DNA of 54,941 nt from Rhodospirillales bacterium. GTDB taxonomy: Bacteria; Pseudomonadota; Alphaproteobacteria; QKFK01; SZUA-500. The stretch covers positions 1-54,941 of the forward strand of contig QKFK01000141.1 of the NCBI GenBank assembly GCA_003252195.1, in the 5' to 3' direction. Every line of letters starts with the position of its first letter. The first letter of the stretch is position 1. Below are positions 1-22,816 of the stretch, piece by piece. A program made the translations under genes and the position numbers. The notes beneath the pieces were generated by a model. It was given only the letters and a program-made list of their open reading frames with translations, had not been told where the DNA came from and searched no databases.

Positions 1-830
1 TTAGAATATGAACCAGCAGAAGAAAGCAGCTCAGAACTTTACAACAACGCTCTCAATCTTGATGAGCTAGGGTTAGAAGCCAATAAGATTTTGCAAGGAG
101 AAAGCTCTGAAGTATTAGACGCACTATTAAACCTAAATGGCTCATCTGGTGGTGCAAGGCCCAAAATAGTCGCCCTTGTATCAGATGACAAAAAAAGCAT
201 AATCCACGGCTATGAACATAAAGAAAATTACACCCCGTGGCTAATTAAGTTTGACTCATCATTAGATAAAGAAAACATCGGGCTAATAGAATATTTTTAT
301 TCCATCATGGCAAAAAACGCTGGTATAGAAATGCCAGACACGCATTTATTTCCATCAAAGAACAGCAAAGGGCATTTTGGGGTTAAAAGATTTGACCGTT
401 CTAAAAACGGGAAAATACACATACACACTGCTTGTGGCTTATTACACGCCTCGCACCGCTACCCTACCCTTGATTATGAGAATTTAATCAAACTAACTTT
501 GCGTTTAACTAAAGACGTTAGAGAAGTTGAAAAAATGGTTAGATTAATGTTCTTTAACGTAAAGTCTGGCAATAAAGATGATCATAGCAAAAACTTCTCA
601 TTTATGATTGATGAGCAAAGATGACACCAGCCTATGACTTAACGCCGTCTGAAGGTATCAACGGCGAACAAACAGCAATGGTGAACGGCAAAGGTAGAAA
701 TATAACAGATGATGACCTTATAACCACAGCCTCAATATCTGGCATAGAAACAACCAAACTCAAACACATCATCGCCCAGACCATTGATGCAATCGCTGAT
801 TATGACAAACTAAAGAAAGAGGTTGAATAG
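1..830 (+). pseudogene. hipA: HipA-family Ser/Thr kinase toxin, 5'-truncated by window edge and frameshifted
   Basis: Frame 1 is open from nt 1 and contains GGARPK, GVKRFDR and the catalytic-loop-like GNKDDHSKNFSF, with a stop at 622-624. Frame 3 (621-830) continues with TPAYDL, the motif that normally follows in HipA C-termini. A 1-nt indel in the A-run around 615-621 would fuse the two ORFs. Confidence 0.7.
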
Positions 831-961
831 ATAACAATATAAAGCCTAGATGAATACACCAAAGCAGCAGATCAATTCATGCGCTATGTCTGGGCAGGAG
901 TACTAAGCTAAATGGGCTTATGTGGCGTAGAGAGGCAGAATCTGAAATTTATATGTTTGAA

Positions 962-990
962 TAAAAAAAGACGGTTCGCTTGGACCGTCT
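962..990 (-). terminator. Rho-independent terminator closing the minus-strand RT operon (hairpin could also serve hipA)
   Basis: Stem agacggt (969-975) pairs with accgtct (984-990) around an 8-nt loop. The A7 run at 963-969 gives a U-run on the minus strand. Confidence 0.7.
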
Positions 991-1083
991 CTTGTGTCTT
1001 ATTTTCGGTTTCATTCAAAAATAAAACTCACGCATGTGTGTGGGTTGCATACAACCATTACCTGCTAAGCGAAGCGTGAATAC
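991..1083 (-). ncRNA. Candidate DRT3-associated structured ncRNA (only uncommitted space next to the RT pair)
   Basis: About 93 nt between the RT stop (1084) and the terminator. On the minus strand tcacgc...gcgtga encloses a ggttg-tatg-caacc hairpin. No ORF is present. Confidence 0.3.
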
Positions 1084-3156
1084 TCAATATACTTCCTGAC
1101 TTTGTTTTGTGTCCAGCTCTTTTCCAAAATTAAAGTTTTGCCAGGTAGTGAACCATAGGTGTTTTTGCCCCTCTTTATTTCGAAAGTTAAGAATATTATT
1201 CTGATCAGTATCTTCCTGAATATCGTATAGAGCCAGCAAGTATTTTTTTGTTGAACCAGAAACGAACGGGCATGACAATGTATCAAATAAAAGCATTGTT
1301 AGTTCTGCTTTTTTACCAATTAGGGCTTTGTTTTCAGAAAAATATCTCTTGATCTCATTTTCAATATAATTCCGAAGGCCAATGTATCTAACTTTGTCCC
1401 TCATATAAAATAGAAGAACCGTGTATGATAAATAGTTTAACTTTGATTTGCTTTGATATTTTTCATTTGCTTTTTCTATATTAAAATAGCGAGCTAAAAC
1501 ATCTTCTTCTAACCAATAATCTTTTCCCAATTCGGCTAGAGTGACTAATAAATATAGGGTTTCTACTTGTGTATGTTCACTGCTTTTATTTTTATCTAAA
1601 ATAAAGCAAGCATTGTCGTAGATGCTCTTGTAAATTAGGTGTCTGTGCTCTGAATTAATATTCTTGGGGCTCAAGAAGGTACAGAATATACGAATAATTC
1701 TACACAGCCGAATAGTTGTATTAACTTTAGGAGAAACAGAGTAAATAAAAAAAGCAAAATCTAAAATTGAAATTATTGCCTGTATAATTTGATTTTTAGG
1801 CCTGTATTCAGCAGTGGTTTTGGAATAATTTTTAAGCATCCGATCACACTTATTTTCAACAGTAGCCAAACTGTAATTCAGCATATCTTTATAAGACACA
1901 TTACATTCTTTGATAATCGTCTTGAATTGCGTGATTAGCTTATCTGACCTGATATGAACAGAGCCTTTAATGATTTTATTGTCACCGTCACCTTCTTCGG
2001 TTGTCCGGTAAACTATTTTTTCTTCCAATAGACTGGCGATTTTTTGTTTAGCCATAGAAATTTCTGTTATCAATGGCTTGTCGTAAATAATTGCCTTAGA
2101 GGAGTTTAAATACAGCTTATATTCTTTTAATGCATGTTGCAGAGTGTCTGTTATTTTATCTTTATCGTCTTCTTCATTATAAAAAATGAAGTAGTCATCA
2201 ACATATCGAAAAATTTCATAGTCAACGCGATTTTTGAGTTGATATTCGTTATGTAACTGAAGTTCGACTTTTTTATCGACCGACTGAAGGAGTATTTCAG
2301 CAAAAATTCTAGAAAACTCAGGGCCGATTATAATGCCATTTGTTTCATTGTAGTTCATATTTTGCATTAGACGATCAAACTTACCAGCAAATGTATCCTT
2401 ACTAGCCCCTAGGTTCTCTTTGACATAGGTTTTTCCTATCGTGGCCCAAGCTAATGAATGGGTGTAAATACTATCAAAACACTTAGAGATATCTAACTTT
2501 AGAAGTCTATTATATTTTTTCTCACAGCGGTGATATTGGTACGATTCATAAAACTTATAAATATTACTATAATTCTGATAAACGAAAAAAGACCGTAGAT
2601 TTTCATATTCTTTACCATCCTCTTCAATCAAAGGATCATCTTCAGATAAGTTCGCATAATGGGTGCGATCTTTGTGGAATTTATATTTTGTAACCTTAAC
2701 AGGTTTTCTGATAGCAAAATTACTTCCAGAGCAATGATAGATAATCGTTTCTTTGCAAGTATCATAAAAATCAACAACCTCAAGCTGGCTCCTTGGGTGT
2801 GGAACAGTTAGTTCTCGAAATTCTGCTTTTTTATGATTTATTTTATAAGCAAAAGGTATCAAGTCAAATTTCTTTAGCTTGTAGACATTGAACTCCTTTT
2901 CAGCAGAGCCTATGTATTTTTTTATTTTGTGAAAAGTGTTGTTTTTAGGTAAATCAAACAACAAACAAACGATATGATCTAATGTTGAGCACCCACTAAG
3001 CCATGAAACTTTACCGTCTTTGATTTCCACTTTGTTTTCCAGAAGGAAGTGATAGAAATGTCTGTTTGTAAAAGTTATAGGCAACTCAAAGGGCAAAACG
3101 TCTGATAAAACAGCCCTTTCTTTACGATATTTAAGGTTTATTTTTTTACGTCGCAT
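1084..3156 (-). CDS. Reverse transcriptase, second and larger RT of a DRT type 3-like pair (UG8-like by position and size)
   Basis: RT motifs LDISKCFDSI (A), GIIIGPEFSRIFAEILL (B-like) and FRYVDDYFIFY (YVDD, C), followed by a long helical C-terminal half. Overlaps the upstream RT gene by 11 nt. Confidence 0.75.
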   Translation of the reverse strand: MRRKKINLKYRKERAVLSDVLPFELPITFTNRHFYHFLLENKVEIKDGKVSWLSGCSTLDHIVCLLFDLPKNNTFHKIKKYIGSAEKEFNVYKLKKFDLIPFAYKINHKKAEFRELTVPHPRSQLEVVDFYDTCKETIIYHCSGSNFAIRKPVKVTKYKFHKDRTHYANLSEDDPLIEEDGKEYENLRSFFVYQNYSNIYKFYESYQYHRCEKKYNRLLKLDISKCFDSIYTHSLAWATIGKTYVKENLGASKDTFAGKFDRLMQNMNYNETNGIIIGPEFSRIFAEILLQSVDKKVELQLHNEYQLKNRVDYEIFRYVDDYFIFYNEEDDKDKITDTLQHALKEYKLYLNSSKAIIYDKPLITEISMAKQKIASLLEEKIVYRTTEEGDGDNKIIKGSVHIRSDKLITQFKTIIKECNVSYKDMLNYSLATVENKCDRMLKNYSKTTAEYRPKNQIIQAIISILDFAFFIYSVSPKVNTTIRLCRIIRIFCTFLSPKNINSEHRHLIYKSIYDNACFILDKNKSSEHTQVETLYLLVTLAELGKDYWLEEDVLARYFNIEKANEKYQSKSKLNYLSYTVLLFYMRDKVRYIGLRNYIENEIKRYFSENKALIGKKAELTMLLFDTLSCPFVSGSTKKYLLALYDIQEDTDQNNILNFRNKEGQKHLWFTTWQNFNFGKELDTKQSQEVY

Positions 3157-4492
3157 GCTTCCAGACCTTTACTATTCTTTTAAAGTCGTTAGCTGAAAAC
3201 TTGAAAAATCTCTTTTCGTTAAAGCCTTTCTTAAAGGATAATTCGGAAAGAGTTCTTTTTAACTTTTCATCTTCAATTAAACTAATTTGGTTAGTTAAAA
3301 AACTATCAAGTTCATCAAGACAGGATGTACTATTCATTAAAGAACATGAAAAATATATTCCAACAACGGCGTTCTTTTTGTTGTTAACGAGCCGAGTATT
3401 CCCAGTTAAAAAACGCACTCTTTCCAATAGGATGGATTTTGATTTGTTTTTATTAGATTTTACTGTTTTGTGATAGTCTTTAAAAGAAAGTTCGATCTTG
3501 TCCTTATATTTCTGAATTTTAGACTTTGTAAGCTTAATTTCAACAGAGCCATTGCCAAAGGTAAAATTATATCCCAAGTAATCGAGTGTTTTTTGTTCTG
3601 TACCATTGATCGATTTTGTGTGTGTTTTTTCTTTGTTAAGAGTTAGGCCAATATCGCTCAGGCTTTTTTTTACAAAAGCCAATTTCCGATGCACACTAAT
3701 ACTTGGATCTGCACTGCAAACAATTATAATATCATCTACATAACGAGCATAATATAAAACCTGCGGGCATTTTAGAATTATTTCGTCAAACTTCCTTAAG
3801 TACAATTCTGACAAATATGCGCTTATACCAACTCCCCTAGGTATTCCTGATTTTTCTCCAGATATTTGCTCATACTCGTGTAGTATTCTACGAATTATCT
3901 TTTTTGATGTAAGCGTGAGGAGCGGATCGTCGTTAAGTTTTTTTAATAAACGGCCCCTCGGGATGCTTTCGTAAAAGCTTAAAATATCCGTTCTAATAAT
4001 ATGTTTAGGTAGCTTATCAGAAAAAGTTTCTCTAAGCTGACATACAATATTGTGCCGGTTTCCTTGTTTAACCTTATATAGCTTACGAAGATTGTTTTGT
4101 ATTTGCTTTAAAGCAAAGTATGAAGTGGCATTCTTTTCGTAACCGTATGCTTTTTTTGTTTTTCCAACATCGATTTCCTTTAAGCCTAATGAAAATTTTT
4201 TTTCTGTTATAGAAGAAGCAATTTGCTCAAGTTCATTAGAAAGTAAATTTTCTTTTTTTTCTTTTAAGTTTAACTTCTTTTTGTATAGCTCTTCCTTTTT
4301 CTTTTCATATGCTTCAATAGAAGTGTTTGACTTGGTTTTCCTGTGCTGTCGTATTGCGACGCTGACGTCCTTGATTTGTTTTGTAATCTTCTCAACTTCA
4401 GGAAAGAATTCATCTTCCAAGTAGTTACCTTTCCTATTTTCGTAGTCGAAAATTTTTCGGAAATTTTCAGATGAGAATGATTGATCAAGCAT
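3146..4492 (-). CDS. Reverse transcriptase, first and smaller RT of a DRT type 3-like pair (UG3-like by position and size)
   Basis: Motifs IPRGVGISAYLSELYL, YARYVDDIIIV (YVDD) and LTLNKEKT. The ATG lies 3 nt after the Res stop, with an AAGGA RBS inside the end of res. Confidence 0.75.
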   Translation of the reverse strand: MLDQSFSSENFRKIFDYENRKGNYLEDEFFPEVEKITKQIKDVSVAIRQHRKTKSNTSIEAYEKKKEELYKKKLNLKEKKENLLSNELEQIASSITEKKFSLGLKEIDVGKTKKAYGYEKNATSYFALKQIQNNLRKLYKVKQGNRHNIVCQLRETFSDKLPKHIIRTDILSFYESIPRGRLLKKLNDDPLLTLTSKKIIRRILHEYEQISGEKSGIPRGVGISAYLSELYLRKFDEIILKCPQVLYYARYVDDIIIVCSADPSISVHRKLAFVKKSLSDIGLTLNKEKTHTKSINGTEQKTLDYLGYNFTFGNGSVEIKLTKSKIQKYKDKIELSFKDYHKTVKSNKNKSKSILLERVRFLTGNTRLVNNKKNAVVGIYFSCSLMNSTSCLDELDSFLTNQISLIEDEKLKRTLSELSFKKGFNEKRFFKFSANDFKRIVKVWKHAT

Positions 4493-4495
4493 TTT

Positions 4496-7462
4496 CTAAT
4501 TCCTTTCAGACATGGCCTGATCCACAAAAGTGTCATAATTACTCGCCACCATATAGCGAGCATCTTCACCAAGGGCTTTAAAGTGCTCATGCCCACAATG
4601 AATTTTGGCTTGCTCTACATCGCGCAGCATATCTTCGAAAACTGTGCCTTTACTTTCAACAACGAAATACAGCTTCTCTTGACCATCAAGTTCAAATAAC
4701 ACTGCCCAGTCAGGATTATATGATCCAAGCGGGGTATCAATTTTAAACCAGCCCGGAAGTTTTGCGTAAACTTTTACTTCATCATTCTTTTCAAAGGACT
4801 GAGCCAGGCCTGATTCAATATCTGAATCGTAGACCACATGATCATATGCTGACTTATCTGCTTCAATCATGTTTTTGTTCAGATATCCAATCAGTTCTTC
4901 GCTTTCAAACAGCTCCTGTCCGTAAAAATGCTCGTCACCAATTTTGTGGTATTTAATCCCATCTACGATAAATCGGCGCATTTCACGCTTAATAACTTCT
5001 TTCACCTCATCAATAAACTTCTGAGGGTTATTCTTAAAGTCGTTTAGGCGACCGCTCTTGATCAGGATATCAAGAATAGACTGGCGCTTCAGGTTTGTTT
5101 CATTTTGTAGGTAGCTTAAAATATCCGGTATCTGATAATCGCGAACATCATACAAATGGGTGCTTTCTTGGGCTTGGGTAACGGTTACTCCGCCTTTGCT
5201 GATTTCAGTTTTGGCGCGTGTGTAATTGAACTTAGTTTTTCCTACAATTAGGCTTTTCTGAATGCTCTCAGCGCATTTTTCAATAAGCTGGTCTGGGTCA
5301 AAATCGACGTTATAGACGGTTTTGTATTTGATACGATCCCACAGGTCTTTAAATTCAGGGCTATCAAATACTGCCTTATTCAAACGAACTGTGCGCTTAT
5401 CATCATTGTTCTTAATGTTGAGGACGCCAGCCATTTTCTTAAGCGTTGCGGTGATCGCTTCCCGCTGTTCTTCAAACTGCTCTGGAAGTGCTACAGTGTC
5501 TTCCTTCAAAGCCTTTTTCAGCTCATCTGTGACTTTGCCGCGTTGATCGATATATTTGCTTTCCAGTAAGTCATTCCAGATCGCCTCAGAAGCCTCCGCG
5601 CCAAGGAAGGTCTGTTCGCCGGTTTCTGTTTCAATAACGATATTGGCAAAACTGTGATCTTCGATAACGCCGAATTTGATGCCTTCCTCTTTCTCGATCT
5701 CTTTTTGTAAGCCTTCAACAAAATCTTCGTAAGATTCATTAGCCATGACGGTCAATGTATTGACGTCAAATCCATGAACACGCTCTCCATCCTGATTGAC
5801 GGATATACGAAGACCACGACCAATTTCTTGTCGTTTTTTGATGGTTGACTTCGTTTCATTCAGCGTACATATCTGGAAGACGTTGGGGTTATCCCAACCT
5901 TCTTTGAGGGCAGAGTGAGAGAAAATAAACTTCAACTTTGAATCAAAGCTGAGTAGTTTCTCTTTGTCCTTCATAATTAAGCTGTACGTATCTTCATCAG
6001 CCTTGGTCGTACCGTTGGTGTCTTTGAAGCCGTTTTTATCGCCAGAGAAATATCCGTTGTGAACAATCTCAGGAAGGCTATCTGTGTCCATGTCTGAAAA
6101 TAGGCTGTTATACTTTGGCTTTTTGATCGCCTTGGCATACTCTTCCTCAAACATAATGGCGTATTTGCCTTTTTGATCTGGCGCATCATAGTCACGGTAA
6201 TTTGCCACCTTATCGATAAAGAAGAGGCTTAAAACTTTAATGCCCATCGGGGTGAGTTTCAGCTCTTTATCCAAATGCTCTTCGATGGTTTTGCGTATTT
6301 GCAGACGTTTATATTCGTCCTCGCTCACATCGCCAATGGCGTGATGCAGGCGAATAATATCTGGCTTACTGGTGAAATCGATATATTCATTGCCTTCTTC
6401 GCAGTAAATATCATTGACCACATATCCGTCATAAATAGAGCGTCCGCCAGAAATACTCAGCAAGTCATCACCTTGCTTAACCCATTTCTCGGCGCGTTTA
6501 ACATTGCCTTGTTGCTGAATATCCAGTTCGATCTTGGCGCGATGGCCGTTTTTGTTATCTACGGCCAGAAGCTTGATATATGCCTTATTGTGTCCATCTT
6601 TCACCTGAATAGAAGCGACCTCAATCTGTTTCACCAGTTTTTGCTCATAGGCATCAATAGAATCCAGTTTATAAAGCATATTGTGCTTATCAATATGCGT
6701 GGCCGAATATCTAAAGGTACATAGCGGGTTGAGCGACTTGATCGCTTCAGCAGATTTGGCTGTGGTATCCACACTTTGCGGCTCATCAATAATCACAATC
6801 GGGTTGGTGGATTTAATAAAATCAATCGGCACGCCCTGCATTTTATCATTCCAACGGTGAATAATATTGGCGCTGGTTTCTTTTGATGGATCGGTAAAGC
6901 TTTTGCGGAACGCATCAATATTGATCACCATGATCTGGATATAATCATTCGTAGCAAAACTGCGGACTTGCTCTAATCGGCCCGAGTCATAAACAAAATA
7001 ATCAAACGGCACATTATCATATTGTTCGCGGAAGTGCGTTTCTGTCATTTGCAGAGATTTATAAACACCTTCCTTAATGGCAATGCTTGGCACAACAATA
7101 ATGAATTTTGTAAACCCGTATTTTTTATTCATCTCAAAGATTGAGCGTAAATAAACATAAGTCTTTCCGGTTCCTGTTTCCATCTCAACCGTGAAGTCAC
7201 GGCTTTTCAATTCTTTTGTTTGCTTCAACCCATTATTGAGTTGGATTTTACGAACATTATCTTGTATCTCTTCATCCAATAGACGTAGGCGGTTACCGAA
7301 ACCTTTGTCCGTTTGGTTGGTCAATGTTGCCTCGAACTCACTCGCCGCGAGCGATGGCATTGAGAACGTGGTTTTATTCAGCTCTTGACCTTCAAATATA
7401 TCAACCGCAGATTCCCATGCGCGGCGCTGGTGGTTCTGGTTTGGATCAAATTTAATCTTCAT
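4496..7462 (-). CDS. res: Type III restriction enzyme Res subunit (SF2 helicase plus C-terminal PD-(D/E)xK nuclease)
   Basis: ETGTGKTYVY (motif I), IIDEPQS (motif II) and a C-terminal PDWAV...VVESKG nuclease-like motif. 4-nt overlap with the upstream doc gene. Confidence 0.85.
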   Translation of the reverse strand: MKIKFDPNQNHQRRAWESAVDIFEGQELNKTTFSMPSLAASEFEATLTNQTDKGFGNRLRLLDEEIQDNVRKIQLNNGLKQTKELKSRDFTVEMETGTGKTYVYLRSIFEMNKKYGFTKFIIVVPSIAIKEGVYKSLQMTETHFREQYDNVPFDYFVYDSGRLEQVRSFATNDYIQIMVINIDAFRKSFTDPSKETSANIIHRWNDKMQGVPIDFIKSTNPIVIIDEPQSVDTTAKSAEAIKSLNPLCTFRYSATHIDKHNMLYKLDSIDAYEQKLVKQIEVASIQVKDGHNKAYIKLLAVDNKNGHRAKIELDIQQQGNVKRAEKWVKQGDDLLSISGGRSIYDGYVVNDIYCEEGNEYIDFTSKPDIIRLHHAIGDVSEDEYKRLQIRKTIEEHLDKELKLTPMGIKVLSLFFIDKVANYRDYDAPDQKGKYAIMFEEEYAKAIKKPKYNSLFSDMDTDSLPEIVHNGYFSGDKNGFKDTNGTTKADEDTYSLIMKDKEKLLSFDSKLKFIFSHSALKEGWDNPNVFQICTLNETKSTIKKRQEIGRGLRISVNQDGERVHGFDVNTLTVMANESYEDFVEGLQKEIEKEEGIKFGVIEDHSFANIVIETETGEQTFLGAEASEAIWNDLLESKYIDQRGKVTDELKKALKEDTVALPEQFEEQREAITATLKKMAGVLNIKNNDDKRTVRLNKAVFDSPEFKDLWDRIKYKTVYNVDFDPDQLIEKCAESIQKSLIVGKTKFNYTRAKTEISKGGVTVTQAQESTHLYDVRDYQIPDILSYLQNETNLKRQSILDILIKSGRLNDFKNNPQKFIDEVKEVIKREMRRFIVDGIKYHKIGDEHFYGQELFESEELIGYLNKNMIEADKSAYDHVVYDSDIESGLAQSFEKNDEVKVYAKLPGWFKIDTPLGSYNPDWAVLFELDGQEKLYFVVESKGTVFEDMLRDVEQAKIHCGHEHFKALGEDARYMVASNYDTFVDQAMSERN

Positions 7463-7899
7463 TCTGCACCTCCCTGAATAGCATTCAGGATTTTTAATTT
7501 TAAGTCTTCTTCTTCATCCTGCTCATTCAGGACTGCCACAATAATTTCCCTTAGGAGATCTTTATCAATAGCCCCAGAAGCCACATGATAACTGACATTC
7601 TCCATTTTTCTTAAAAAGCTCCCAGAGCAATACATATAGCCATTCAAAAGTAACATCTGGGCTGCCAGTGTGATGGCAATTCTTTTGTTCCCATCTTGAA
7701 AACAATGAAATTTGCACGCACCAAAAAACAAATGCGTTAACTTATCTTCAAACTCGGGATAATAATCATCATTCTGTATATGCTCCAGAACAGAGCCTAA
7801 CTGTTGAACATCAAGAAACCCCAAAGCACCACCACCACTTACTTCGATAGTTTTAGCGTGGGTTTCTTTTGCTTGTTCAAGAGTGAGATAAATTGTCAT
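7459..7899 (-). CDS. doc: Doc (death-on-curing) / Fic-fold kinase toxin family protein
   Basis: FHCFQDGNKRIAITLA matches the Doc variant of the Fic motif, HxFx(D/N)(A/G)NKR. 146 aa. Confidence 0.8.
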   Translation of the reverse strand: MTIYLTLEQAKETHAKTIEVSGGGALGFLDVQQLGSVLEHIQNDDYYPEFEDKLTHLFFGACKFHCFQDGNKRIAITLAAQMLLLNGYMYCSGSFLRKMENVSYHVASGAIDKDLLREIIVAVLNEQDEEEDLKLKILNAIQGGAE

Positions 7900-8934
7900 C
7901 TATTCTCTCTCCTTCAAGCGCTTCATAACATCCTTAGCGTCTTCTAATCGTTCCTGAAGATCTTTGCTTTTTTCGCCTATAAATCGTTCAAAATCTTCTT
8001 TCTGAATAGGAGTTATGTATTCCTTTAGCTGATGATGCAGAGCATCCCTAAACGCCAGATCACGGCTAGCCATTTTATTTCTTGCTTTTTCAATCAAAGG
8101 TCGCCAATGTGCTTTATTTTCAAAATCAGAGAATACAGCGTCCACTTCGGAGCTAGAAAGAGACCTCCCCGCTTCAGTTGCTTTACGGCGTATTTCATCA
8201 GCAAGTCCGCATTCAAAGGAAGAAACCAGGTCAAGAATTTCAGAGTAAAAAGTATCGCGTGTATTATCATTGTTATGCAAATTTAAGATTTTTCTATATT
8301 CATCCGCATTTTCCTTAAAAATGGCGACATATATTTTATTCGTATAGACAGGGTACTTAAAATTTCCCATAGCAACACAATCTTTCAGTGCATCAGTAAA
8401 TTGCTTCCGATAGTTTTCTTCGGCAAACCAAGAATGAATAAAGTCTTCATCGCGCTGGTTTATATATTTTGTGCCCCCACCCGTACGCTGGTTTATAGTA
8501 TCAATTACGATATCAAGCATTGTTTGACGCAAAAGTCGTGCACGCTCATTTTCTGATAAAAGCATGGCAATATTTAAAAAAGCCCGAATATCAAAAACAC
8601 CTAGCTGAGGAGAAGTTTTAAGGTTAGCGAAATCAGTTTCGTTAACACCTGTTGACAAAATAGCATCTTTCAATGATTTCAAACGTTTACCAGTCAAAAC
8701 CACATAACCGTTACCAACCAACTCTCCTTCATTTTTTGAAATATAGTTATCAATTGTACGGGGCGTAACCTCAAAAAATTGTGCAACCTGTTCCTTCAGA
8801 ACCACATGTTTTCCCTCAAAAGGAATTCCATTAATGCCTACAGCCCGCTCTATTTCCTGCACAGCATAAGGGTTATTCAGGATATTCTGGCGATCAATTC
8901 TAGAAACTGTAAGGTCTTTTTTTCCATTTATCAT
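7900..8934 (-). CDS. Hypothetical protein with N-terminal HTH-like segment; occupies the antitoxin position upstream of doc
   Basis: VLKEQVAQFFEVTPRTIDNYI looks HTH-like. 344 aa, and its stop directly abuts the doc start. No Phd-like small ORF is present. Confidence 0.5.
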   Translation of the reverse strand: MINGKKDLTVSRIDRQNILNNPYAVQEIERAVGINGIPFEGKHVVLKEQVAQFFEVTPRTIDNYISKNEGELVGNGYVVLTGKRLKSLKDAILSTGVNETDFANLKTSPQLGVFDIRAFLNIAMLLSENERARLLRQTMLDIVIDTINQRTGGGTKYINQRDEDFIHSWFAEENYRKQFTDALKDCVAMGNFKYPVYTNKIYVAIFKENADEYRKILNLHNNDNTRDTFYSEILDLVSSFECGLADEIRRKATEAGRSLSSSEVDAVFSDFENKAHWRPLIEKARNKMASRDLAFRDALHHQLKEYITPIQKEDFERFIGEKSKDLQERLEDAKDVMKRLKERE

Positions 8935-8948
8935 GACGACCCCTCCCC

Positions 8949-10784
8949 TTACAAGCTCTTGATATCTTCAATACCGTAACGCTTGAGCGTTTGCAGGGCA
9001 TTGGTTTTGACAACATCATCCTTGAAGCCGTCATCCTTGAACACGACGCGCATAATTTCAGGCTGAAGCTCTTCTTTCAATGCGCCAATGCCATTCACCA
9101 CATCCATGTTGATATCCTTGTCCAGACAAACAACCAGAGCGCCCAGACCGATAGAGTAAACAGTCTTTCCGGCAATGCTTCGTGTTTCAATCGGCACGGT
9201 TAGATCAAGGCCATATTTCAGAAGAAGCTCATAAAGTACATCCTCGCTGGAGCGATCCTGTTTGATATAGTCAACGGCATTCAGAAGATCTGCTTCAAGC
9301 GTATCAAAATCCGCCTCCCATCGTTTGATGTTGGAGCTGTCCAGTTTAAACACTTTGAAGCCAAGATCGCCTTTGTAATCAGGGTTTTCTTCTTGAATTT
9401 TCTTTGCCGCACGGCGGATACGTTCTTTGGAAATATCAGCAATATTTTTATAACCAGATTTAAATGCTTCTGATTTCTCATCTGTAGTTTCAGGTAATTG
9501 AACAGAAATATGACGACGGCTGCCATTATCATCAACATTTAGTTGCATAACCGTATTTGCTGTTGTTCCTGAACCAGCAAAAAAATCCAGAACTATGGCA
9601 TCTTTATCTTCTTCTATCCCTTGCACGACAAGTTCTTTAATGAGTGCCGTAGGTTTAGGAAAATCAAAGGCTTTAAAGCCAAAAAGCTCATCAATTTCTT
9701 TTGTTCCATCTCTAGTGTAAATGTCTTTAGCAACAATAGAAGAGAAGCCAGTATATTCTTGTTGGAGTTCGTTTAAAAATAATTTTCTCCTTGGCCTTCC
9801 ATCTTCTTTTTCAGGCCAAATAATCTTATTTTCGGCGATCAAATTGTTCATAGTATTTTGATCGTATCTCCACCCCATTTTAGGTTTACCATAGTTTATA
9901 TTGTTTTCTGGATTTATAAGATCATAATGGCAATTTGGCCTTTGATCCTGAGGCAAAATACCGACCATGTTTGCGCTTGACCAATCTCCTCTGGGATCAT
10001 TATCGGGATTTTTATATTGATCAGTGTTCCTATCTGCTCCCCGTATCTTTCTTCCATAAACAATAATATATTCGTGATCTATAGATGCTCCAGTGACATT
10101 TCTATTATCTTTGTTTTGACGGCTTTTCCAAACAAATTGAGCAATGAAATTTTCCTCCCCAAAAACTTCGTTGCAAACTTTTTTCAAATTATCAGCTTCG
10201 ACATCATCTATCGAAATAAATATAGCTCCATCATCACGGAGAAGGTTTCTAGCCAATTTCAGGCGTGGGTACATCATGTTCAGCCAGTTGGTATGATAAC
10301 GTCCAGCCGCACTGGAATTCGTTCCCATTTTCTTGCCTTCACTATCGAGCTGTCCCGTCAATTCAAGATAGTTTTTTACGCCATCCTTAAAATCATCCTC
10401 ATAAACGAAGTCATTCCCTGTATTGTAAGGTGGGTCGATATAGATCATCTTCACTTGTCTGTGATATGATTTTTGCAGGAGCTTCAAGACTTCAAGGTTG
10501 TCACCTTCAATAAACAAATTCTGCGTGGTGTCCCAATCTACACTTTCTTCCTTGCATGGGCGGAGCGTTCCTGTGCTTGGTGTTTGTGCTAACCTGCCTG
10601 CCTTGCGTTTGCCATGCCATGTGAAGTTATAATGATCTTCATCTTCCACCACATAATTGCCAAGCAATTCCTGCAGCTGATCAAATTTGATTTTTCCTTC
10701 AGAAAACACTTCGGGAAACAGCTCCTTAAGCTGTTGAATATTCTGCTCCACAATATCCATGCTCTTGCCGTCTAGTTTTTCCAT
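8949..10784 (-). CDS. mod: Type III-like DNA methyltransferase Mod (N6-A/N4-C beta class)
   Basis: IYIDPPYNTGNDF (DPPY, motif IV) precedes VLDFFAGSGTTANTV (FxGxG, motif I). Confidence 0.85.
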   Translation of the reverse strand: MEKLDGKSMDIVEQNIQQLKELFPEVFSEGKIKFDQLQELLGNYVVEDEDHYNFTWHGKRKAGRLAQTPSTGTLRPCKEESVDWDTTQNLFIEGDNLEVLKLLQKSYHRQVKMIYIDPPYNTGNDFVYEDDFKDGVKNYLELTGQLDSEGKKMGTNSSAAGRYHTNWLNMMYPRLKLARNLLRDDGAIFISIDDVEADNLKKVCNEVFGEENFIAQFVWKSRQNKDNRNVTGASIDHEYIIVYGRKIRGADRNTDQYKNPDNDPRGDWSSANMVGILPQDQRPNCHYDLINPENNINYGKPKMGWRYDQNTMNNLIAENKIIWPEKEDGRPRRKLFLNELQQEYTGFSSIVAKDIYTRDGTKEIDELFGFKAFDFPKPTALIKELVVQGIEEDKDAIVLDFFAGSGTTANTVMQLNVDDNGSRRHISVQLPETTDEKSEAFKSGYKNIADISKERIRRAAKKIQEENPDYKGDLGFKVFKLDSSNIKRWEADFDTLEADLLNAVDYIKQDRSSEDVLYELLLKYGLDLTVPIETRSIAGKTVYSIGLGALVVCLDKDINMDVVNGIGALKEELQPEIMRVVFKDDGFKDDVVKTNALQTLKRYGIEDIKSL

Positions 10785-10813
10785 TATATACTCCTCGTAA
10801 ACAATCTTATACT

Positions 10814-11101
10814 CTACACATACTCAGCTGGATAAACCAATCTAGCGTTATCTTTTTCTATAAAAATATCTTCAACCTCAATACACGACACCAACCCTTT
10901 AATACTCCAAGGATTAGCAGCCATAGGTTCTCCTGGCACCAATGCCACTGCACAAGCAAAACTTCTTCCTGCAAGCATCCTTGCCTGACGTTCATCTTTT
11001 GCCACAAAAGTTGCCTTGCCTTTATATATACTAGCCTTCCAATTATGGTTATCCCGTCTATCTTCAACAGGTGATAGCTCAAATACTTTTAGTTCATCCA
11101 T
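10814..11101 (-). CDS. Hypothetical 95-aa protein
   Basis: ORF co-directional with the operon, lying between the HEPN-like gene and mod. No recognisable motif. Confidence 0.4.
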   Translation of the reverse strand: MDELKVFELSPVEDRRDNHNWKASIYKGKATFVAKDERQARMLAGRSFACAVALVPGEPMAANPWSIKGLVSCIEVEDIFIEKDNARLVYPAEYV

Positions 11102-11143
11102 AATATTTTCTCCAATTAAATTTTTATGTAAGATTATTACACA

Positions 11144-11914
11144 TCAGAAGGGGATTTCATCATCAAATTCTCTTATTTCAACAGGATATTCTATTTCATA
11201 ATAATTAAGTAAGAACAACCCTACTGTAGATACAGAGTTTAAGATAAACATTGCATACAAAGGGTTATCAATGATTTCTCTATCCGTACCATGAGCGTTA
11301 GTATTTTCGCTTCTAATATTCTCTACGGCTTGTGCCACACTTATCAAGCCAGAGGCTATATTCCTTAAATTACCATTAAGATCTTTATCAGGATATAATT
11401 TAAACTGCTTTAAAATGTGTTGCGTTAATTTATATAGTGTTAACTTACTATTGCATGGTTCAATCCTATCATCTGAGCATATTCTTTTTATTATTAACTC
11501 TAAAGCAGAATTTGCCATCATAACAGCAGCAGCTGGCTCTGAAGCGACTTTTTCAAACGCTTTATTAAATACATCTCCGACATTTTCGTATCTATCAGCT
11601 AATACCCCTTTTATTTCAGCAACAGCATATATTAGACCTGGCACTTCAATACCTAAGTCAACAGCAATCTGCATAAGCAACTCATCACCCATAGTATCCA
11701 GAGTTGCAGAAAGATTTATTTGATCTTTATCATTTAATATGACTGTGAAATTCTCATCACAGCATCTTCCATAATCGTCTGAGAAAACTTTATGCCAACG
11801 TTTTATATATCTTGATGCATTTTTATAAGAACTGTACTTTTCCCATATTGCCTTTTCAATTCGATCAATGATATCTATCATAGCAGATGGAGAAACAAGA
11901 ATATCACTCATCAC
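11144..11914 (-). CDS. Abi_C-type HEPN-like protein (putative abortive-infection RNase)
   Basis: The C-terminal NIRSENTNAHGTDREI fits the HEPN Rx4-6H motif and the RN..HG signature of the Abi_C family. 4-nt overlap with the upstream gene. Confidence 0.55.
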   Translation of the reverse strand: MMSDILVSPSAMIDIIDRIEKAIWEKYSSYKNASRYIKRWHKVFSDDYGRCCDENFTVILNDKDQINLSATLDTMGDELLMQIAVDLGIEVPGLIYAVAEIKGVLADRYENVGDVFNKAFEKVASEPAAAVMMANSALELIIKRICSDDRIEPCNSKLTLYKLTQHILKQFKLYPDKDLNGNLRNIASGLISVAQAVENIRSENTNAHGTDREIIDNPLYAMFILNSVSTVGLFLLNYYEIEYPVEIREFDDEIPF

Positions 11915-12663
11915 AACAACCTTTCTAAGTCATTTATTTTTATAGAGGCCTCTTTTATCAAAACATTTAAATCAAGCTTTTTATTAAATTGTGTCTCCTT
12001 CTTAAGCATGGAACGTAGTTCCGTTACTTTTCTTTCTAACTCGGCTATTTTAATTAGTTTTTCCCGGCGATCAATGACGCCATCTGCAGACACAACAAAA
12101 TATTGGCCACTACGCGATGATGAGTTAAGAGCAATGACACGATTTTTAATATCTGTGTAGAAAGCGTAAAAATTAACAAAAGATAAGTTCTTAACTGCCA
12201 TATCCTGCATAAACTTCTGCTGGGCTTCGTTTGGTGCATCAGGATTAAACCACTCGGTTATCCAAGAGTCTTCAATCACCCATTTGGATTTGTCGGCCTG
12301 ATTGATCCTTTTGTCGGCAACGCTAATCGCTATCGTATCCGCAAAGCTAAAAACAAGCATGACCGGATACGGAATAGCTTTATTCACAAAGGAGGCAATT
12401 CGCTGGGCGCGCGCTATGCTGGTCAGGTCAATCTGGATAATCGCGATTTCATCATATTCGCGCACATCATCCCGGTAAGGTTCGATATTGAGAGTGGATG
12501 GTTTTAGCGTATAAACCCATCGGATTTTATCAATGTCATCCTTAAGGGCTTTTTTATCCGTGATATCGAGATCAGCATGTTCCTGAAACAGCTTTTTGAA
12601 TAGCGGCTTGTTCAGCACACATTTCCCTGGGATGGCCATGTAATCATAAAAGGTCTGCGTCAT
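11911..12663 (-). CDS. DUF4391-like protein (helicase-associated, function unknown)
   Basis: 250 aa. Translationally coupled (ATGA overlaps) to the SNF2 helicase upstream. Assignment rests on size, synteny and remembered family features, not on a search. Confidence 0.45.
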   Translation of the reverse strand: MTQTFYDYMAIPGKCVLNKPLFKKLFQEHADLDITDKKALKDDIDKIRWVYTLKPSTLNIEPYRDDVREYDEIAIIQIDLTSIARAQRIASFVNKAIPYPVMLVFSFADTIAISVADKRINQADKSKWVIEDSWITEWFNPDAPNEAQQKFMQDMAVKNLSFVNFYAFYTDIKNRVIALNSSSRSGQYFVVSADGVIDRREKLIKIAELERKVTELRSMLKKETQFNKKLDLNVLIKEASIKINDLERLL

Positions 12664-15600
12664 GCTTGCGTCTCCCGAATGATCAGATAGCTGATGACCT
12701 CAAAATCTTCGAGGCTTGAGAAGTGATCTTGTGTGAGGGAAGTGCCGCCACGACTGAACAGGCTTTCGATGCCTTTTTCTTCAGTTTTCCCGATAACGGA
12801 TTGAATGGCAGTTTCCAGCATGAATTGGTATGCGCCCATGTCCTTGCCGTTCCGGGTGGCATCATTCAGATCTTGGACTGCTGTTTCATCGATGACCTTA
12901 TTCATGGCACAGAGCTTTTTGAAGATATCGAGGCTCTTTTTGCTCTGCAGGTGGTTATAGACAACGTTGCCATCTTCGGCCACATAAACCATGTAATATG
13001 GAGATAGGGCATAATGCGGGTCAAACTCGACTTTGCCGTTAATGTCTCTCAGGCAGAAGATGGTGCCTGGGACGATCTCATTCATGCTTTTGCTGACAGC
13101 GGCATAAAAACCAGAAGGCGAACGCTCAAGTTGATCCATGTTGTCCTTCATGAAGCCTGATAAATCCATGCGGAAATCATTCAGCGTCATATCGGTGATA
13201 GACACACTGCCATCCATATCTTCAAGATCAAGAACGGAATCTTGAAGCTGCTTCATTTGGCGGCGGCGGTATTCTAGATCATTCATCTGTTTCTTTTCGT
13301 CATAATCAATGACGTTTTCTTCACCAGTTGCAGAAATATCGAGAAGCACCATACGACCACTAACGCGGGCTTCAAGGTTGATATATTCGTCCAGCTCCAT
13401 ATTTGGCCAGAAATTGGCAAGCTGGATCGCATCGTTGCGAGAGCCTAAACGGTCAACACGACCAAAACGCTGGATAATCCGCACCGGATTCCAGTGAATA
13501 TCGTAGTTAATGAGCATGTCACAATCCTGCAGGTTTTGTCCCTCAGAAATACAATCTGTCGCAATCAAAATATCAATTTCTGTTGTTGCCAATGCATCTA
13601 TCTTAGCTCTATCTTTTGAAATTGGTGAAAAGTGAGTAAGGATATTATTCAGATCTTTGTCTATACCTTTAATAGTACATTGATTTGAGCCTGCCCCAGT
13701 AACCAGCGCCGAATGTAAACCTAGATTTGACAGTGCCCAATCAGCAATGTTTTTATAAAGATAGTCCGCAGTATCTGAAAATGCTGTAAAAATAACAACC
13801 TTTTTATTGCCAATGTTAATCTGATTATTTTCTTTATTAATTATAACTTCTTTTAATTTCAGTAATTTTGCATCCTCTGTTGCTGTTACCTTAAGAGCCT
13901 CTCCATGCAAACTCGCAAGAAGATGCAAATCATCTTCTAAATCCTGCCTCCAACGGTATAAGTCCATATCTTGAATAAGAATTTTTGTTTTGTTTCCTAT
14001 TAGATAATCCTCAAGCATTGGATCATCCACTTCAATATCTTCAATACTCAGCTCTTCAAATTCTGAATTCTCATGCCTATCAATTTGTTCTAATATTTTT
14101 TGTATCTTATCATGAATTTTTCCAACAGTTTGGGCAAACGAGTTAATAGAGCTTTCCATACGTTTAAGCATATTCACACGCATCAAATGAACCAAACTAC
14201 GTTCACGGTCAACTTGCCTAAAAACAGAAGCACCACCCTGCACTTCTTGATCGTACTTACGACTATATTCTTCCTTTTTATCGTCCCTAACATATTCCAA
14301 CGGGGCATATGCTCCTAGGTTCAACCTTTTAATGGATAAATTAACATCCTTCAAATGTGGAAAATTGCCATTTATATCTATATCAGATTTTATATTTACA
14401 GGCTTCAAACGCTCTGGGAACTTCCCCACTTCGCTTACATCATAATATTTTTCTATATGCTTTCTTGAACGAGCAATAGTCAATAAATCCAGAAGTTTAA
14501 AATAACCAAAATTCATACTCTCCAAAAGAGTTTCTGTTCTACGATCATTCTCTGGCAATTTAAGCCACTGATTAAACTTTGTCTGGGCTACCTTCAAAGT
14601 ATGTTCAATGCTAGATATGCCATAATCCTTCAAAGAATAGTCTCGTCCCTCCGTTATGAACGCAACCTGATTCTTAAGATCATTCATCCTATTATTAACT
14701 GGTGTTGCAGAAAGCATAAGAACTTTTGTCTTCACTCCAGCTCTAATAACATCATCCATTAATTTCTGATATCTATTTCCACCATCTTTTTTGCTACCGC
14801 TATTCCTAAAATTATGAGACTCATCTATTACCAACAGGTCATAGTTACCCCAATTAATAGTTTCTAGATTAATTTCTCCTGATCGTCCTTTTTTACGACT
14901 TAAATCTGTATGATTTATTACATCATAATTAAACCTATCCTTTGAGAGCAGGTTACGCTTATCATTTATTGTATATATAGTCCAATTTTCTCGTAACTTC
15001 TTTGGACAAAGCACCAGCACCCTATCGTTACGTAGTTCATAATATTTAATTACAGCCAAAGCTTCAAAGGTTTTACCCAAACCAACACTATCCGCTATAA
15101 TACAACCATTATATTTCTCAAGTTTATCAATAGCCCCTAGAACACCATCTCTCTGGAATTTATACAACTTATTCCATACAATAGTATCTTTAAAACCTGT
15201 TCTTGAACGAATAATGCTCTCTTCATTTATATCCTCTAAATAATCTCTAAATATATTATAGAGGGTAATAAAATAAACTAAATCAGCAGACTTATCTTCT
15301 GATAAATACTCAAGATGTGCTACAAGCTCGTTCTTAATATTTTGAGTAGCTTTAGCATCATTCCAAATCGCATCAAACCATTGGAGAAGCTGTTGTGTTG
15401 TTTCTGCATCGGATATACCCATATTGATTTCAAAAGAGTCAGACCTAACCTCACCAAGACCTGACGCCGTAAAGTGCGAACCACCTTGCACAACGAAACT
15501 ATTATTTTCATTTTTTATATGATACATATTTTGAGGTGGAAACGACATTTGCCCAGATATAGCTTTTATTCTAGCGTTTTTTTTCACCCAATCCATACAC

Positions 15601-15857
15601 TCTTTTGCTATCTGTTTTTGATCAAGCCTATTTTTTAATATATTCTCTTGATAAACACCTGATAAAGATTGCAATGATACTTTATCCCAACGGGACATCA
15701 TCAGCCTAAAGTCTTTTACCCTAAAAAGCTCTTTTTTTAACGCAGAAAATCCGTATATAGTAAACAAACCAGATAAAATCGATAACTTAGAATCCATATC
15801 AACTCTAGATCTAATTTCTGGCAAAACTTTTCCATGTGATTTATTATCAAGTAGCAT
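12660..15857 (-). CDS. SNF2-family helicase with N-terminal degenerate PLD-like domain
   Basis: DSVGLGKTFEA (motif I), VIDESHNFRN (motif II), MLSATPVNN (motif III) and WNPVRIIQRFGRVDRLGS (motif VI). The N-terminal GGSHFTASGLGE is PLD-like but lacks the HKD residues. Confidence 0.8.
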   Translation of the reverse strand: MLLDNKSHGKVLPEIRSRVDMDSKLSILSGLFTIYGFSALKKELFRVKDFRLMMSRWDKVSLQSLSGVYQENILKNRLDQKQIAKECMDWVKKNARIKAISGQMSFPPQNMYHIKNENNSFVVQGGSHFTASGLGEVRSDSFEINMGISDAETTQQLLQWFDAIWNDAKATQNIKNELVAHLEYLSEDKSADLVYFITLYNIFRDYLEDINEESIIRSRTGFKDTIVWNKLYKFQRDGVLGAIDKLEKYNGCIIADSVGLGKTFEALAVIKYYELRNDRVLVLCPKKLRENWTIYTINDKRNLLSKDRFNYDVINHTDLSRKKGRSGEINLETINWGNYDLLVIDESHNFRNSGSKKDGGNRYQKLMDDVIRAGVKTKVLMLSATPVNNRMNDLKNQVAFITEGRDYSLKDYGISSIEHTLKVAQTKFNQWLKLPENDRRTETLLESMNFGYFKLLDLLTIARSRKHIEKYYDVSEVGKFPERLKPVNIKSDIDINGNFPHLKDVNLSIKRLNLGAYAPLEYVRDDKKEEYSRKYDQEVQGGASVFRQVDRERSLVHLMRVNMLKRMESSINSFAQTVGKIHDKIQKILEQIDRHENSEFEELSIEDIEVDDPMLEDYLIGNKTKILIQDMDLYRWRQDLEDDLHLLASLHGEALKVTATEDAKLLKLKEVIINKENNQINIGNKKVVIFTAFSDTADYLYKNIADWALSNLGLHSALVTGAGSNQCTIKGIDKDLNNILTHFSPISKDRAKIDALATTEIDILIATDCISEGQNLQDCDMLINYDIHWNPVRIIQRFGRVDRLGSRNDAIQLANFWPNMELDEYINLEARVSGRMVLLDISATGEENVIDYDEKKQMNDLEYRRRQMKQLQDSVLDLEDMDGSVSITDMTLNDFRMDLSGFMKDNMDQLERSPSGFYAAVSKSMNEIVPGTIFCLRDINGKVEFDPHYALSPYYMVYVAEDGNVVYNHLQSKKSLDIFKKLCAMNKVIDETAVQDLNDATRNGKDMGAYQFMLETAIQSVIGKTEEKGIESLFSRGGTSLTQDHFSSLEDFEVISYLIIRETQA

Positions 15858-15859
15858 AT

Positions 15860-16054
15860 TTATTTTGACCCCTCATCAATTCTGAATTGAGCCACTATCC
15901 ACCTATTTACATCAATTTCACGGAAACGCCAACTACCACCAACCTTAAACCCAGGCAATTTACCTTCAGCAGTTAGACGATATGTTGTTTTTTCATTTAG
16001 CTTGAGGTACTCGGCAACCTCTTTAACCGTTAATATACCACTTTTCATAACCAT
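15860..16054 (-). CDS. Small HTH DNA-binding protein (excisionase/MerR-like HTH_17)
   Basis: LTVKEVAEYLKLNEKTTYRLTAEGKLPGFKVGGSWRFREIDVNRWI. The likely start is the internal ATG at 16054 or 16048 rather than 16132. The stop lies 2 nt before the SNF2 start. Confidence 0.7.
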   Translation of the reverse strand: MVMKSGILTVKEVAEYLKLNEKTTYRLTAEGKLPGFKVGGSWRFREIDVNRWIVAQFRIDEGSK

Positions 16055-16164
16055 CCCATCATGTAAAAAACAACTGAGAAAATAACGGAAAATTACTGAA
16101 CAATCAAGAGCAATAACAAAAACATAATACATAAATATTCAAAATAGATAATGTTCAATAACTA

Positions 16165-22700: not shown

Positions 22701-22800
22701 ATTAGTGTTCGCAGAGCAGCGAACAGGATAATATAAATAAAGCTCAAGAGTATTAGTAATGTTCGTAGAGCCACGAACAGGTTAATATAAACAAAGCTCA
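22701..22800. repeat. Two tandem ~46-49 nt units, each with a 7-bp hairpin (loops AGAGCA / AGAGCC)
   Basis: Unit 1 (22701-22746) has tgttcgc-agagca-gcgaaca. Unit 2 (22752-22800) has tgttcgt-agagcc-acgaaca. A compensatory C:G to T:A change preserves the stem. Both units end in aaagctca. Confidence 0.9.
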
Positions 22801-22816
22801 TATGTACATCTTGCCC

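Follow-up and report, generated by a model that had tools for sequence, protein, structure and literature searches.

We have identified a defense-associated reverse transcriptase type 3 (DRT3) system in contig QKFK01000141.1 of a Rhodospirillales bacterium, a stretch of 54,941 nucleotides (nt) to which we refer, at its full length, as the window. Positions 963-4492 of the minus strand, on which all window features described here lie unless otherwise stated, very probably constitute a complete and canonical DRT3 composed of the reverse transcriptases (RTs) Drt3a and Drt3b along with a non-coding RNA (ncRNA) of ~118 nt, and the system sits at the 3' end of a composite Type III restriction-modification (R-M) operon as its last cassette. 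This is an ordinary, complete DRT3, to which the fold of the RNA, a putative dual-coded promoter and a habit of docking behind unrelated genes add points of side interest.

The two RT genes are direct neighbors, each encodes a YVDD motif, and they overlap by 11 nt at 3146-3156, as had been stated in an initial annotation of the window and is confirmed by reading the sequence and the list of open reading frames (ORFs). The upstream gene, drt3a (3146-4492, with its ATG at 4492-4490), encodes a Class 2 RT of the UG3 group with 448 amino acids (aa), and the downstream gene, drt3b (1084-3156, with its TGA stop codon at 1086-1084), encodes a 690-aa Class 1 RT of the UG8 group. The same annotation had proposed this pairing of UG3 with UG8, and profile hidden Markov models from PADLOC and NCBIfam bear it out. 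Drt3a scores 390.1 bits with the NCBIfam equivalog NF041747 (cut-off 200) and 7e-117 with PADLOC Drt3a, while the values for Drt3b are 750.5 bits with NF041748 (cut-off 350) and 1.5e-205 with PADLOC Drt3b. Both proteins also match the chains of the solved Escherichia coli DRT3 complex (Drt3a to PDB 9z6y_A at 2e-32, Drt3b to 9z6y_H at 4.7e-76).

The catalytic residues of both enzymes are in place. The YVDD codons are found at 3742-3731 in drt3a (RYVDDI) and at 2205-2194 in drt3b (RYVDDY), and in E. coli DRT3 both of these active sites are needed for defense. Residues D320 and D321 of Drt3b are invariant across 30 homologues, as are E24 (codon 3087-3085) and R283 (2310-2308), whose counterparts in the alignment with E. 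coli Drt3b (chain 9z6y_H) are Glu26 and Arg253, the residues described in PMC13213688 as selecting the bases for alternating A/C. The Drt3a N-terminus, MLDQSFS, is kept across loci. Both RT ORFs are full length relative to their homologues, with all invariant residues present.

The DRT3 ncRNA is known to be encoded directly downstream of drt3b, where a conserved 5'-ACACAC-3' loop templates poly(dT-dG) synthesis by Drt3a (PMC13174585), and a downstream position is likewise given for the UG8 ncRNA in PMC9226505. The initial annotation had seen very little room for such an RNA in the ~93 nt between the drt3b stop codon and the next hairpin, and had proposed that it was short, overlapped coding sequence or lay inside the 3' end of the upstream gene res. 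None of these proposals holds. We gathered 171 Drt3b loci from genomes, metagenomes and assemblies (L001 to L172 without L168); a genome scan using a single Drt3b protein as query yielded no loci, and alignment-based scans succeeded. The regions downstream of drt3b in the gathered loci visibly align with positions 1086-955 of the window, and most carry CACACA 28-50 nt past the drt3b stop.

A covariance-model search had been suggested in the annotation, and we carried it out with a model, R1, built from 28 DRT3 downstream regions, a set that excluded L001 and L002, the relatives closest to the window, as well as the window itself. R1 gives a single match in the window, directly 3' of drt3b at 965-1082 (E 6.9e-22 at 96.8 bits, covering positions 1-119 of the 119 in the model), and has no match in res. 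It matches immediately 3' of drt3b in 126 of the 169 sources searched, and the RNA begins 3-13 nt past the drt3b stop in almost all loci. Since R1 finds the same compact layout in so many sources, the interval that had been judged too small is the normal size of the RNA class, and a full-length RNA fills it from the stop codon to the terminator. The stretch 3' of drt3b had also been said to fold, and it does so with a calculated energy of -38.1 kcal/mol over 146 nt (z = -3.64), which none of 200 shuffles equalled. A search of 800-4800 against Rfam returned nothing at gathering score and only noise up to E 10, and Rfam holds no family for the RNA class of the window or for that of the E. coli DRT3 ncRNA. 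One Rfam RT-6 match at the drt3a/drt3b junction (3167-3238, 21 bits against a gathering score of 46.7) was rejected as a chance hit that is not reproduced in four homologous loci.

The RNA (963-1082) folds into four helices and a pseudoknot. Helix P1 joins 1078-1074 to 1033-1029 and encloses P2, which joins 1056-1052 to 1047-1043. The template CACACACA (1042-1034, CACACACAU, with ACACAC at 1041-1036) is exposed and single-stranded, lying after P2 and ahead of the 3' strand of P1, and P2, which adjoins the template on its 5' side, may act as a template boundary. P3 follows (1027-1016 with 1007-996), and then P4 (989-984 with 975-970), which is trailed by a run of seven U residues at 969-963. 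The pseudoknot is formed between 1072-1067 (UCGCUU) and the loop of P4 (981-976, AAGCGA).

All five helices, the pseudoknot included, are backed by covariation. In an alignment of 30 sequences made with MAFFT, 86.8% of cells are paired, compared with 38-45% when the partners are slid, no shuffle equals the observed values, and 29 of the 34 pairs show changes on both sides. Among 65 distinct sequences aligned to the model, the paired fraction rises to 91.7% and compensatory changes are seen at 33 of 34 pairs; the pseudoknot is paired in 91.5% of cells with compensation at 6/6 pairs, support that cannot have been fitted by the alignment because the pseudoknot is absent from the covariance model. 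A minimum free energy fold of the single sequence reproduces P1-P4.

The initial annotation had described a strong terminator at 962-990. A G+C-rich hairpin followed by seven U residues is indeed present (at 993-966 in our terminator scan), but rather than a separate element it is P4 itself. This helix is 97-98% paired and shows compensation at 5 or 6 of the 6 pairs, and we assign the hairpin to the RNA because this conservation with compensatory changes extends to loci without a U-tract and because its loop forms base pairs with the 5' portion of the ncRNA. P4 persists in many G+C-rich relatives in which the U-tract is absent. In the window, P4 and its U-tract (963-990) probably also end both the operon transcript and the ncRNA; P4 is the sole strong terminator detected on the operon strand by the scan, and homology with the nearest relative, L001, stops exactly at 963. 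Annotation pipelines that call P4 a terminator will miss this RNA.

A candidate sigma-70 promoter for the ncRNA lies within the last ten codons of drt3b (1086-1115), with a -35 hexamer TGGACA at 1115-1110 and a -10 hexamer TATATT at 1091-1086. The -10 hexamer ends on the T of the drt3b stop codon, and the predicted start is at ~1081-1078. TGGACA-N18-TATATT is one of five promoter-like sites matching the consensus at 10/12 in a scan of 10.7 kb, and the same fixed site qualifies in 84 of 137 distinct DRT3 loci (61%), while the rest of these genes shows a rate of 0.07% per position. The tail of Drt3b is also conserved as protein, with the pattern L-D-x-K-x-S-x-E-V-Y*, and we therefore tested synonymous positions. 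At the penultimate codon, for Val, 91 of 108 loci use GTA (25.6 expected from the usage of each gene itself), as do 32 of the 33 loci with a G+C content of at least 0.5 (5.5 expected); the Asp codon of the tail is GAC in 75/80 (27.5 expected). The bases so constrained are those of TTGAC and TATAYT, and the overall pattern is T[TG]GAC[AG]-N18-TATAYT with A2 and T6 of the -10 hexamer invariant. P1 begins 8-9 nt past this hexamer. In E. coli, the ncRNA 5' end mapped by RNA immunoprecipitation sequencing (PMC13174585 Table S3) is 7 nt past TATTTT, and TTGCGA is found 18 nt further upstream.

On balance, these sequence patterns make it probable that the ncRNA has a promoter of its own, dual-coded in the tail of drt3b. 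The ncRNA could instead lack a promoter and arise by processing as the untranslated 3' terminus of the operon mRNA, with the GTA-TAY and GAC codons acting as a processing signal or forming part of the RNA. This alternative gains from the start of the RNA so close behind the stop in almost all loci, since any read-through transcript must include it, and from the fact that conservation alone is silent on which nucleic-acid function is selected. We nonetheless consider it unlikely, although it retains appreciable weight, as the conserved bases fall exactly into the two promoter hexamers, the first helix begins at the spacing given above, and the E. coli system has matching geometry relative to an experimentally mapped 5' end. 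The ncRNA would be made as the 3' end of the operon transcript and, probably, also from the dual-coded promoter, which would account for separate control of RNA and RT levels when the RT genes are carried by a foreign operon.

The gene immediately upstream of drt3a is res (4496-7462, with its TAG stop at 4498-4496), which encodes a Type III restriction endonuclease of 988 aa (PADLOC REase_III PDLC03647, 1130 bits; Pfam ResIII and RE_endonuc). The ATG of drt3a follows the res stop after 3 nt (AAA), giving the junction TAG-AAA-ATG, and its Shine-Dalgarno sequence AAGGA (4505-4501) sits within the last codons of res, 8 nt before the ATG; both features had been correctly annotated. So had the lack of intergenic space for a drt3a promoter, to which we can add that a consensus scan found no sigma-70-like site of at least 9/12 on the minus strand in the last ~2.2 kb of res (4493-6665).

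Ten co-directional genes, from a SNF2-family helicase gene through drt3b, follow one another with gaps of at most 42 nt. The helicase gene (12660-15857; PADLOC 'HKD+Snf2' C3a139, 9.4e-128) is succeeded by genes for a DUF4391 protein (11911-12663) and an Abi_C/AbiJ-like protein (11144-11914), a 95-aa ORF (10814-11101) and mod (8949-10784; PADLOC MTase_III, 5.8e-227; Pfam N6_N4_Mtase). Between mod and res lie PDC-M59A, encoding 344 aa without a Pfam match (7900-8934; PADLOC 9.4e-103), and PDC-M59B, encoding a 146-aa Fic/Doc protein (7459-7899; PADLOC 2.3e-37; Pfam Fic), with 14 nt separating mod from PDC-M59A, 0 nt separating PDC-M59A from PDC-M59B, and a 4-nt overlap between PDC-M59B and res. 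Mod and a Res helicase-endonuclease are thus encoded in one operon, as expected of a Type III R-M system, and the score of 368 bits with NCBIfam PRK15483, below the 564-bit equivalog cut-off, places it in a divergent subfamily.

Comparison with other DRT3 loci indicates how the junction with res arose. The two nearest relatives, L001 and L002 (Drt3b 89% identical), have the same Res (97%) and an identical TAG-AAA-ATG junction, without the PDC-M59A/B cassette. In L169 (Drt3b 85%) only the last ~112 nt of res stand before drt3a, with the junction TAG-GAA-ATG, and a DUF1643 gene is inserted further up; more res fragments are found at 3-82 and 183-303 of L169 1-1740, with the DUF1643 gene (501-1109) between. 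Such a layout might indicate a role of the res 3' end in expressing drt3a. L083 (Drt3b 76%) stands alone in a defense island, and its homology to the window ends 21 nt before the ATG. L087 (Drt3b 67%) has an operon of the order SNF2-DUF4391-Mod-Fic-Res-Drt3a-Drt3b in which a different Res, 37% identical, is followed by an 11-nt gap, and in L149 (Drt3b 42%) a Res of another PADLOC subfamily precedes drt3a by 3 nt. An ancient link between Res and DRT3 can be rejected, given that the Res proteins of the window and L087 are only 37% identical but their Drt3b proteins 67%, that the Res of L149 is from another subfamily and that L083 stands alone. The res-drt3a junction of the window is thus a recent, lineage-specific event and one case of a recurrent habit of the DRT3 cassette.

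That habit is visible in the wider sample. A co-directional neighbor lies within 12 nt of drt3a in 25 of the 127 loci with an upstream ORF, the median gap being 189 nt. Partners other than Res that end 2-12 nt before drt3a or overlap it by 8 nt are T5orf172/MUG113 proteins of ~400 aa, Cas4-like PD-(D/E)XK nucleases and BrxL. The T5orf172/MUG113 proteins (~305-440 aa, with the GIY-YIG-like domain C-terminal) overlap drt3a by 8 nt or end 2-5 nt before it in L005, L007, L010, L011, L014, L026, L028, L089, L091, L095 and L171; PADLOC gives no match for these neighbors except a weak one in L005 (PDC-S57, 6.2e-05), and in one DRT3 subclade the protein could serve as a third component. The Cas4-like proteins (222-225 aa; L106, L108, L117 and L118) and BrxL (L122) end 5-12 nt before drt3a, and in these loci DRT3 appears to be the last cassette of nuclease-containing or bacteriophage exclusion (BREX) operons.

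From the arrangement in the window we infer that drt3a and drt3b lack a dedicated promoter and are transcribed together with res and translated by coupling, by way of the Shine-Dalgarno sequence inside res, the TAG-AAA-ATG junction and the 11-nt overlap. Co-transcription with the R-M operon had already been proposed in the initial annotation; it is the simplest reading, and the tight junction is kept in the closest relatives, but it is at present plausible rather than proven. The RT genes could alternatively be independent of the R-M operon, with a promoter in the 3' end of res driving drt3a-drt3b and the tight junction a mere accident of packing. Retention of the res 3' terminus in L169, despite insertion of the DUF1643 gene and ~500 nt into res, would accord with this arrangement, as would the E. 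coli system, which also abuts its upstream gene (a 1-nt gap past an integrase gene of a P4-like satellite) and is active when cloned with its native flanks (PMC13174585). We regard an independent promoter as improbable, however, in view of the empty promoter scan of the res 3' region and of the end of homology with the stand-alone L083 21 nt upstream of the ATG, which implies that no ancestral DRT3 promoter was carried along. Moreover, the gaps of 3-12 nt or overlaps of 8 nt with co-directional upstream genes in 25/127 loci involve varied partners, which looks like selection for coupling. A third possibility, in which DRT3 is degenerating or incomplete, has a truncated or missing ncRNA and rides along to no effect, has nothing in its favor beyond the short intergenic distance and can be given almost no credence, as both ORFs are full length with their invariant residues, the ncRNA matches R1 over its whole length, and the compact layout is the norm in 126/169 sources.

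Taken more broadly, DRT3 might be a promoter-less, dockable RT cassette that borrows the transcription of a host operon while its ncRNA keeps a promoter in the Drt3b tail, and the pseudoknotted 118-nt RNA might be the class that is far more widespread than the E. coli RNA in our sample. We advance this generalization tentatively, judging its chances to be a little short of even. On this view, drt3a-drt3b would have landed time and again 1-12 nt past, or with an 8-nt overlap onto, the stop codon of the terminal gene of another defense or mobile-element operon. The docking partners seen comprise three unrelated Type III Res lineages, BrxL, Cas4-like nucleases, T5orf172 proteins and the integrase gene of the P4-like satellite.

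The mechanism we propose is taken from E. coli DRT3 (PMC13174585, and Deng et al. 2026 as far as it is conveyed by PMC13213688), and the product and trigger are extrapolated from that system. The RT genes would be expressed through transcription of the R-M operon and translational coupling, and the RNA partly on its own. By analogy, Drt3a together with the ncRNA would synthesize poly(dT-dG) from the ACACAC template, and Drt3b would produce poly(dC-dA) by protein-primed and protein-templated synthesis. The two strands would anneal to repeat double-stranded DNA, which would normally be destroyed by RecBCD; when a phage inhibitor of RecBCD such as Gam is present, the double-stranded DNA would accumulate and lead to abortive infection. 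The products of restriction are cleared by RecBCD, and a DRT3 located after a restriction gene might, speculatively, constitute a layered defense against phages that block RecBCD; the repeated docking of DRT3 behind restriction or BREX genes, taken with the reported trigger of RecBCD inhibition, suggests such a logic.

Several points weigh against the interpretation presented here. Our consensus promoter scans of 800-16400 found sites no commoner than in shuffles (38 versus 33.1 +/- 7.0, and 19 versus 21.2), so the scans cannot locate the promoter of the operon and leave room for a weak promoter within res. The res remnant of L169 and the activity of the E. coli system with native flanks both fit a promoter in the 3' end of the upstream gene. 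What is selected at the synonymous sites closing drt3b could be RNA processing or structure instead of a promoter, and sigma-70 rules may fit this host imperfectly. Finally, the product and trigger are extrapolations for this ncRNA class and these RTs (32% identity to E. coli Drt3b).

The surroundings of the system are rich in defense genes, and a defense island takes up the first ~22 kb of the window. Outside the ten-gene operon it contains a 177-aa HipA_C-only fragment with a 69-aa ORF (91-830, plus strand), an SF1 helicase with DUF2726 resembling Mokosh MkoA/MkoC (16165-19023) and a PDC-S28 helicase (19215-21719, plus strand, 1124 bits). The PDC-M59A/B cassette (7459-8934) is absent from the otherwise collinear L001, with homology breaking at 7462 and 8945, and in L087 the corresponding place between mod and res is occupied by a Fic gene of 371 aa, which together suggest a recurrent insertion slot within Type III R-M operons. 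The SNF2-DUF4391-mod-res backbone is common to the window and L087, and a literature search on DUF4391 found nothing naming this arrangement. Two tandem matches to the Rfam 6A RNA (RF02925) above gathering score (45.7 and 50.1 bits) are located at 22701-22806 on the plus strand. A megablast search of 900-7500 against plasmids gave no match.

The closest characterized relative of the system in the window is E. coli DRT3 (Gao et al. 2020; Deng et al. 2026, PDB 9z6y/9z6z; Wang, Yoneyama et al. 2026, PMC13174585). The two share the order drt3a, drt3b, ncRNA, the YVDD motif in both RTs, the equivalents of Glu26 and Arg253, an exposed ACACAC template, an unrelated upstream gene abutted by drt3a and, just before the 5' end of the RNA, a promoter-like TTGnnA-N18-TATnnT. 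They differ in that Drt3b is only 32% identical, Drt3a has 448 rather than 398 aa, and the system is hosted by a Type III R-M operon in the window but by a P4-like satellite in E. coli. In the E. coli locus (L168, CFSAN064035, NZ_CP031134.1, 1603-6161), DRT3 lies 1 nt past the stop of the tyrosine integrase of the satellite, among ogr/Delta, psu and a primase-helicase gene, and in this strain drt3b as annotated (679 aa) extends by 22 nt into the ncRNA as published. In Table S3 of PMC13174585 the genome coordinates of EcoDRT3a and EcoDRT3b appear to be swapped, and those of the ncRNA (60365-60204) are inconsistent with a place downstream of drt3b (58373); ~58365-58204 was probably meant.

The RNAs of the two systems also differ. 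In the window the RNA is 118 nt long, has its template at nt ~41-49 and forms four helices and a pseudoknot, whereas the E. coli ncRNA has 161 nt and its template at ~nt 112, and R1 reaches no more than 4.7 bits in the E. coli locus even with filters off. The window RNA is a structural class apart from the E. coli RNA, and the two have only position and template motif in common. A fold shared with the E. coli ncRNA was thus not found, nor is one required for membership, as folds are group-specific in Mestre et al. 2022 (PMC9226505), with which a separate RNA class agrees. That survey reports predicted downstream ncRNAs in 20 UG8 groups, with group-specific structures and an exposed, globally conserved CACACA-like motif at variable distance from the end of the UG8 RT. 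The window RNA fits this account of UG8-associated 'CACACA' ncRNAs. Beyond the window, our analysis gives a well-supported fold for a widespread DRT3 ncRNA class distinct from that of E. coli, in which a pseudoknot runs through the loop of the terminal hairpin.

Likenesses to other systems are more partial. DRT9 and DRT10 (PMC12632851, PMC12489045) also place a short template in a structured ncRNA, flanked by helices that are possible boundaries, but they have a single RT (Class 2 UG) without a second, protein-templating RT, their products are poly-dA or tandem repeats, and their effectors are others. EcoP15I-like mod-res systems resemble the operon of the window in encoding Mod and Res together; unlike them, the window operon has a SNF2 helicase and DUF4391 upstream and carries guest cassettes at three places, an Abi_C-like gene before mod, PDC-M59A/B between mod and res, and DRT3 after res.

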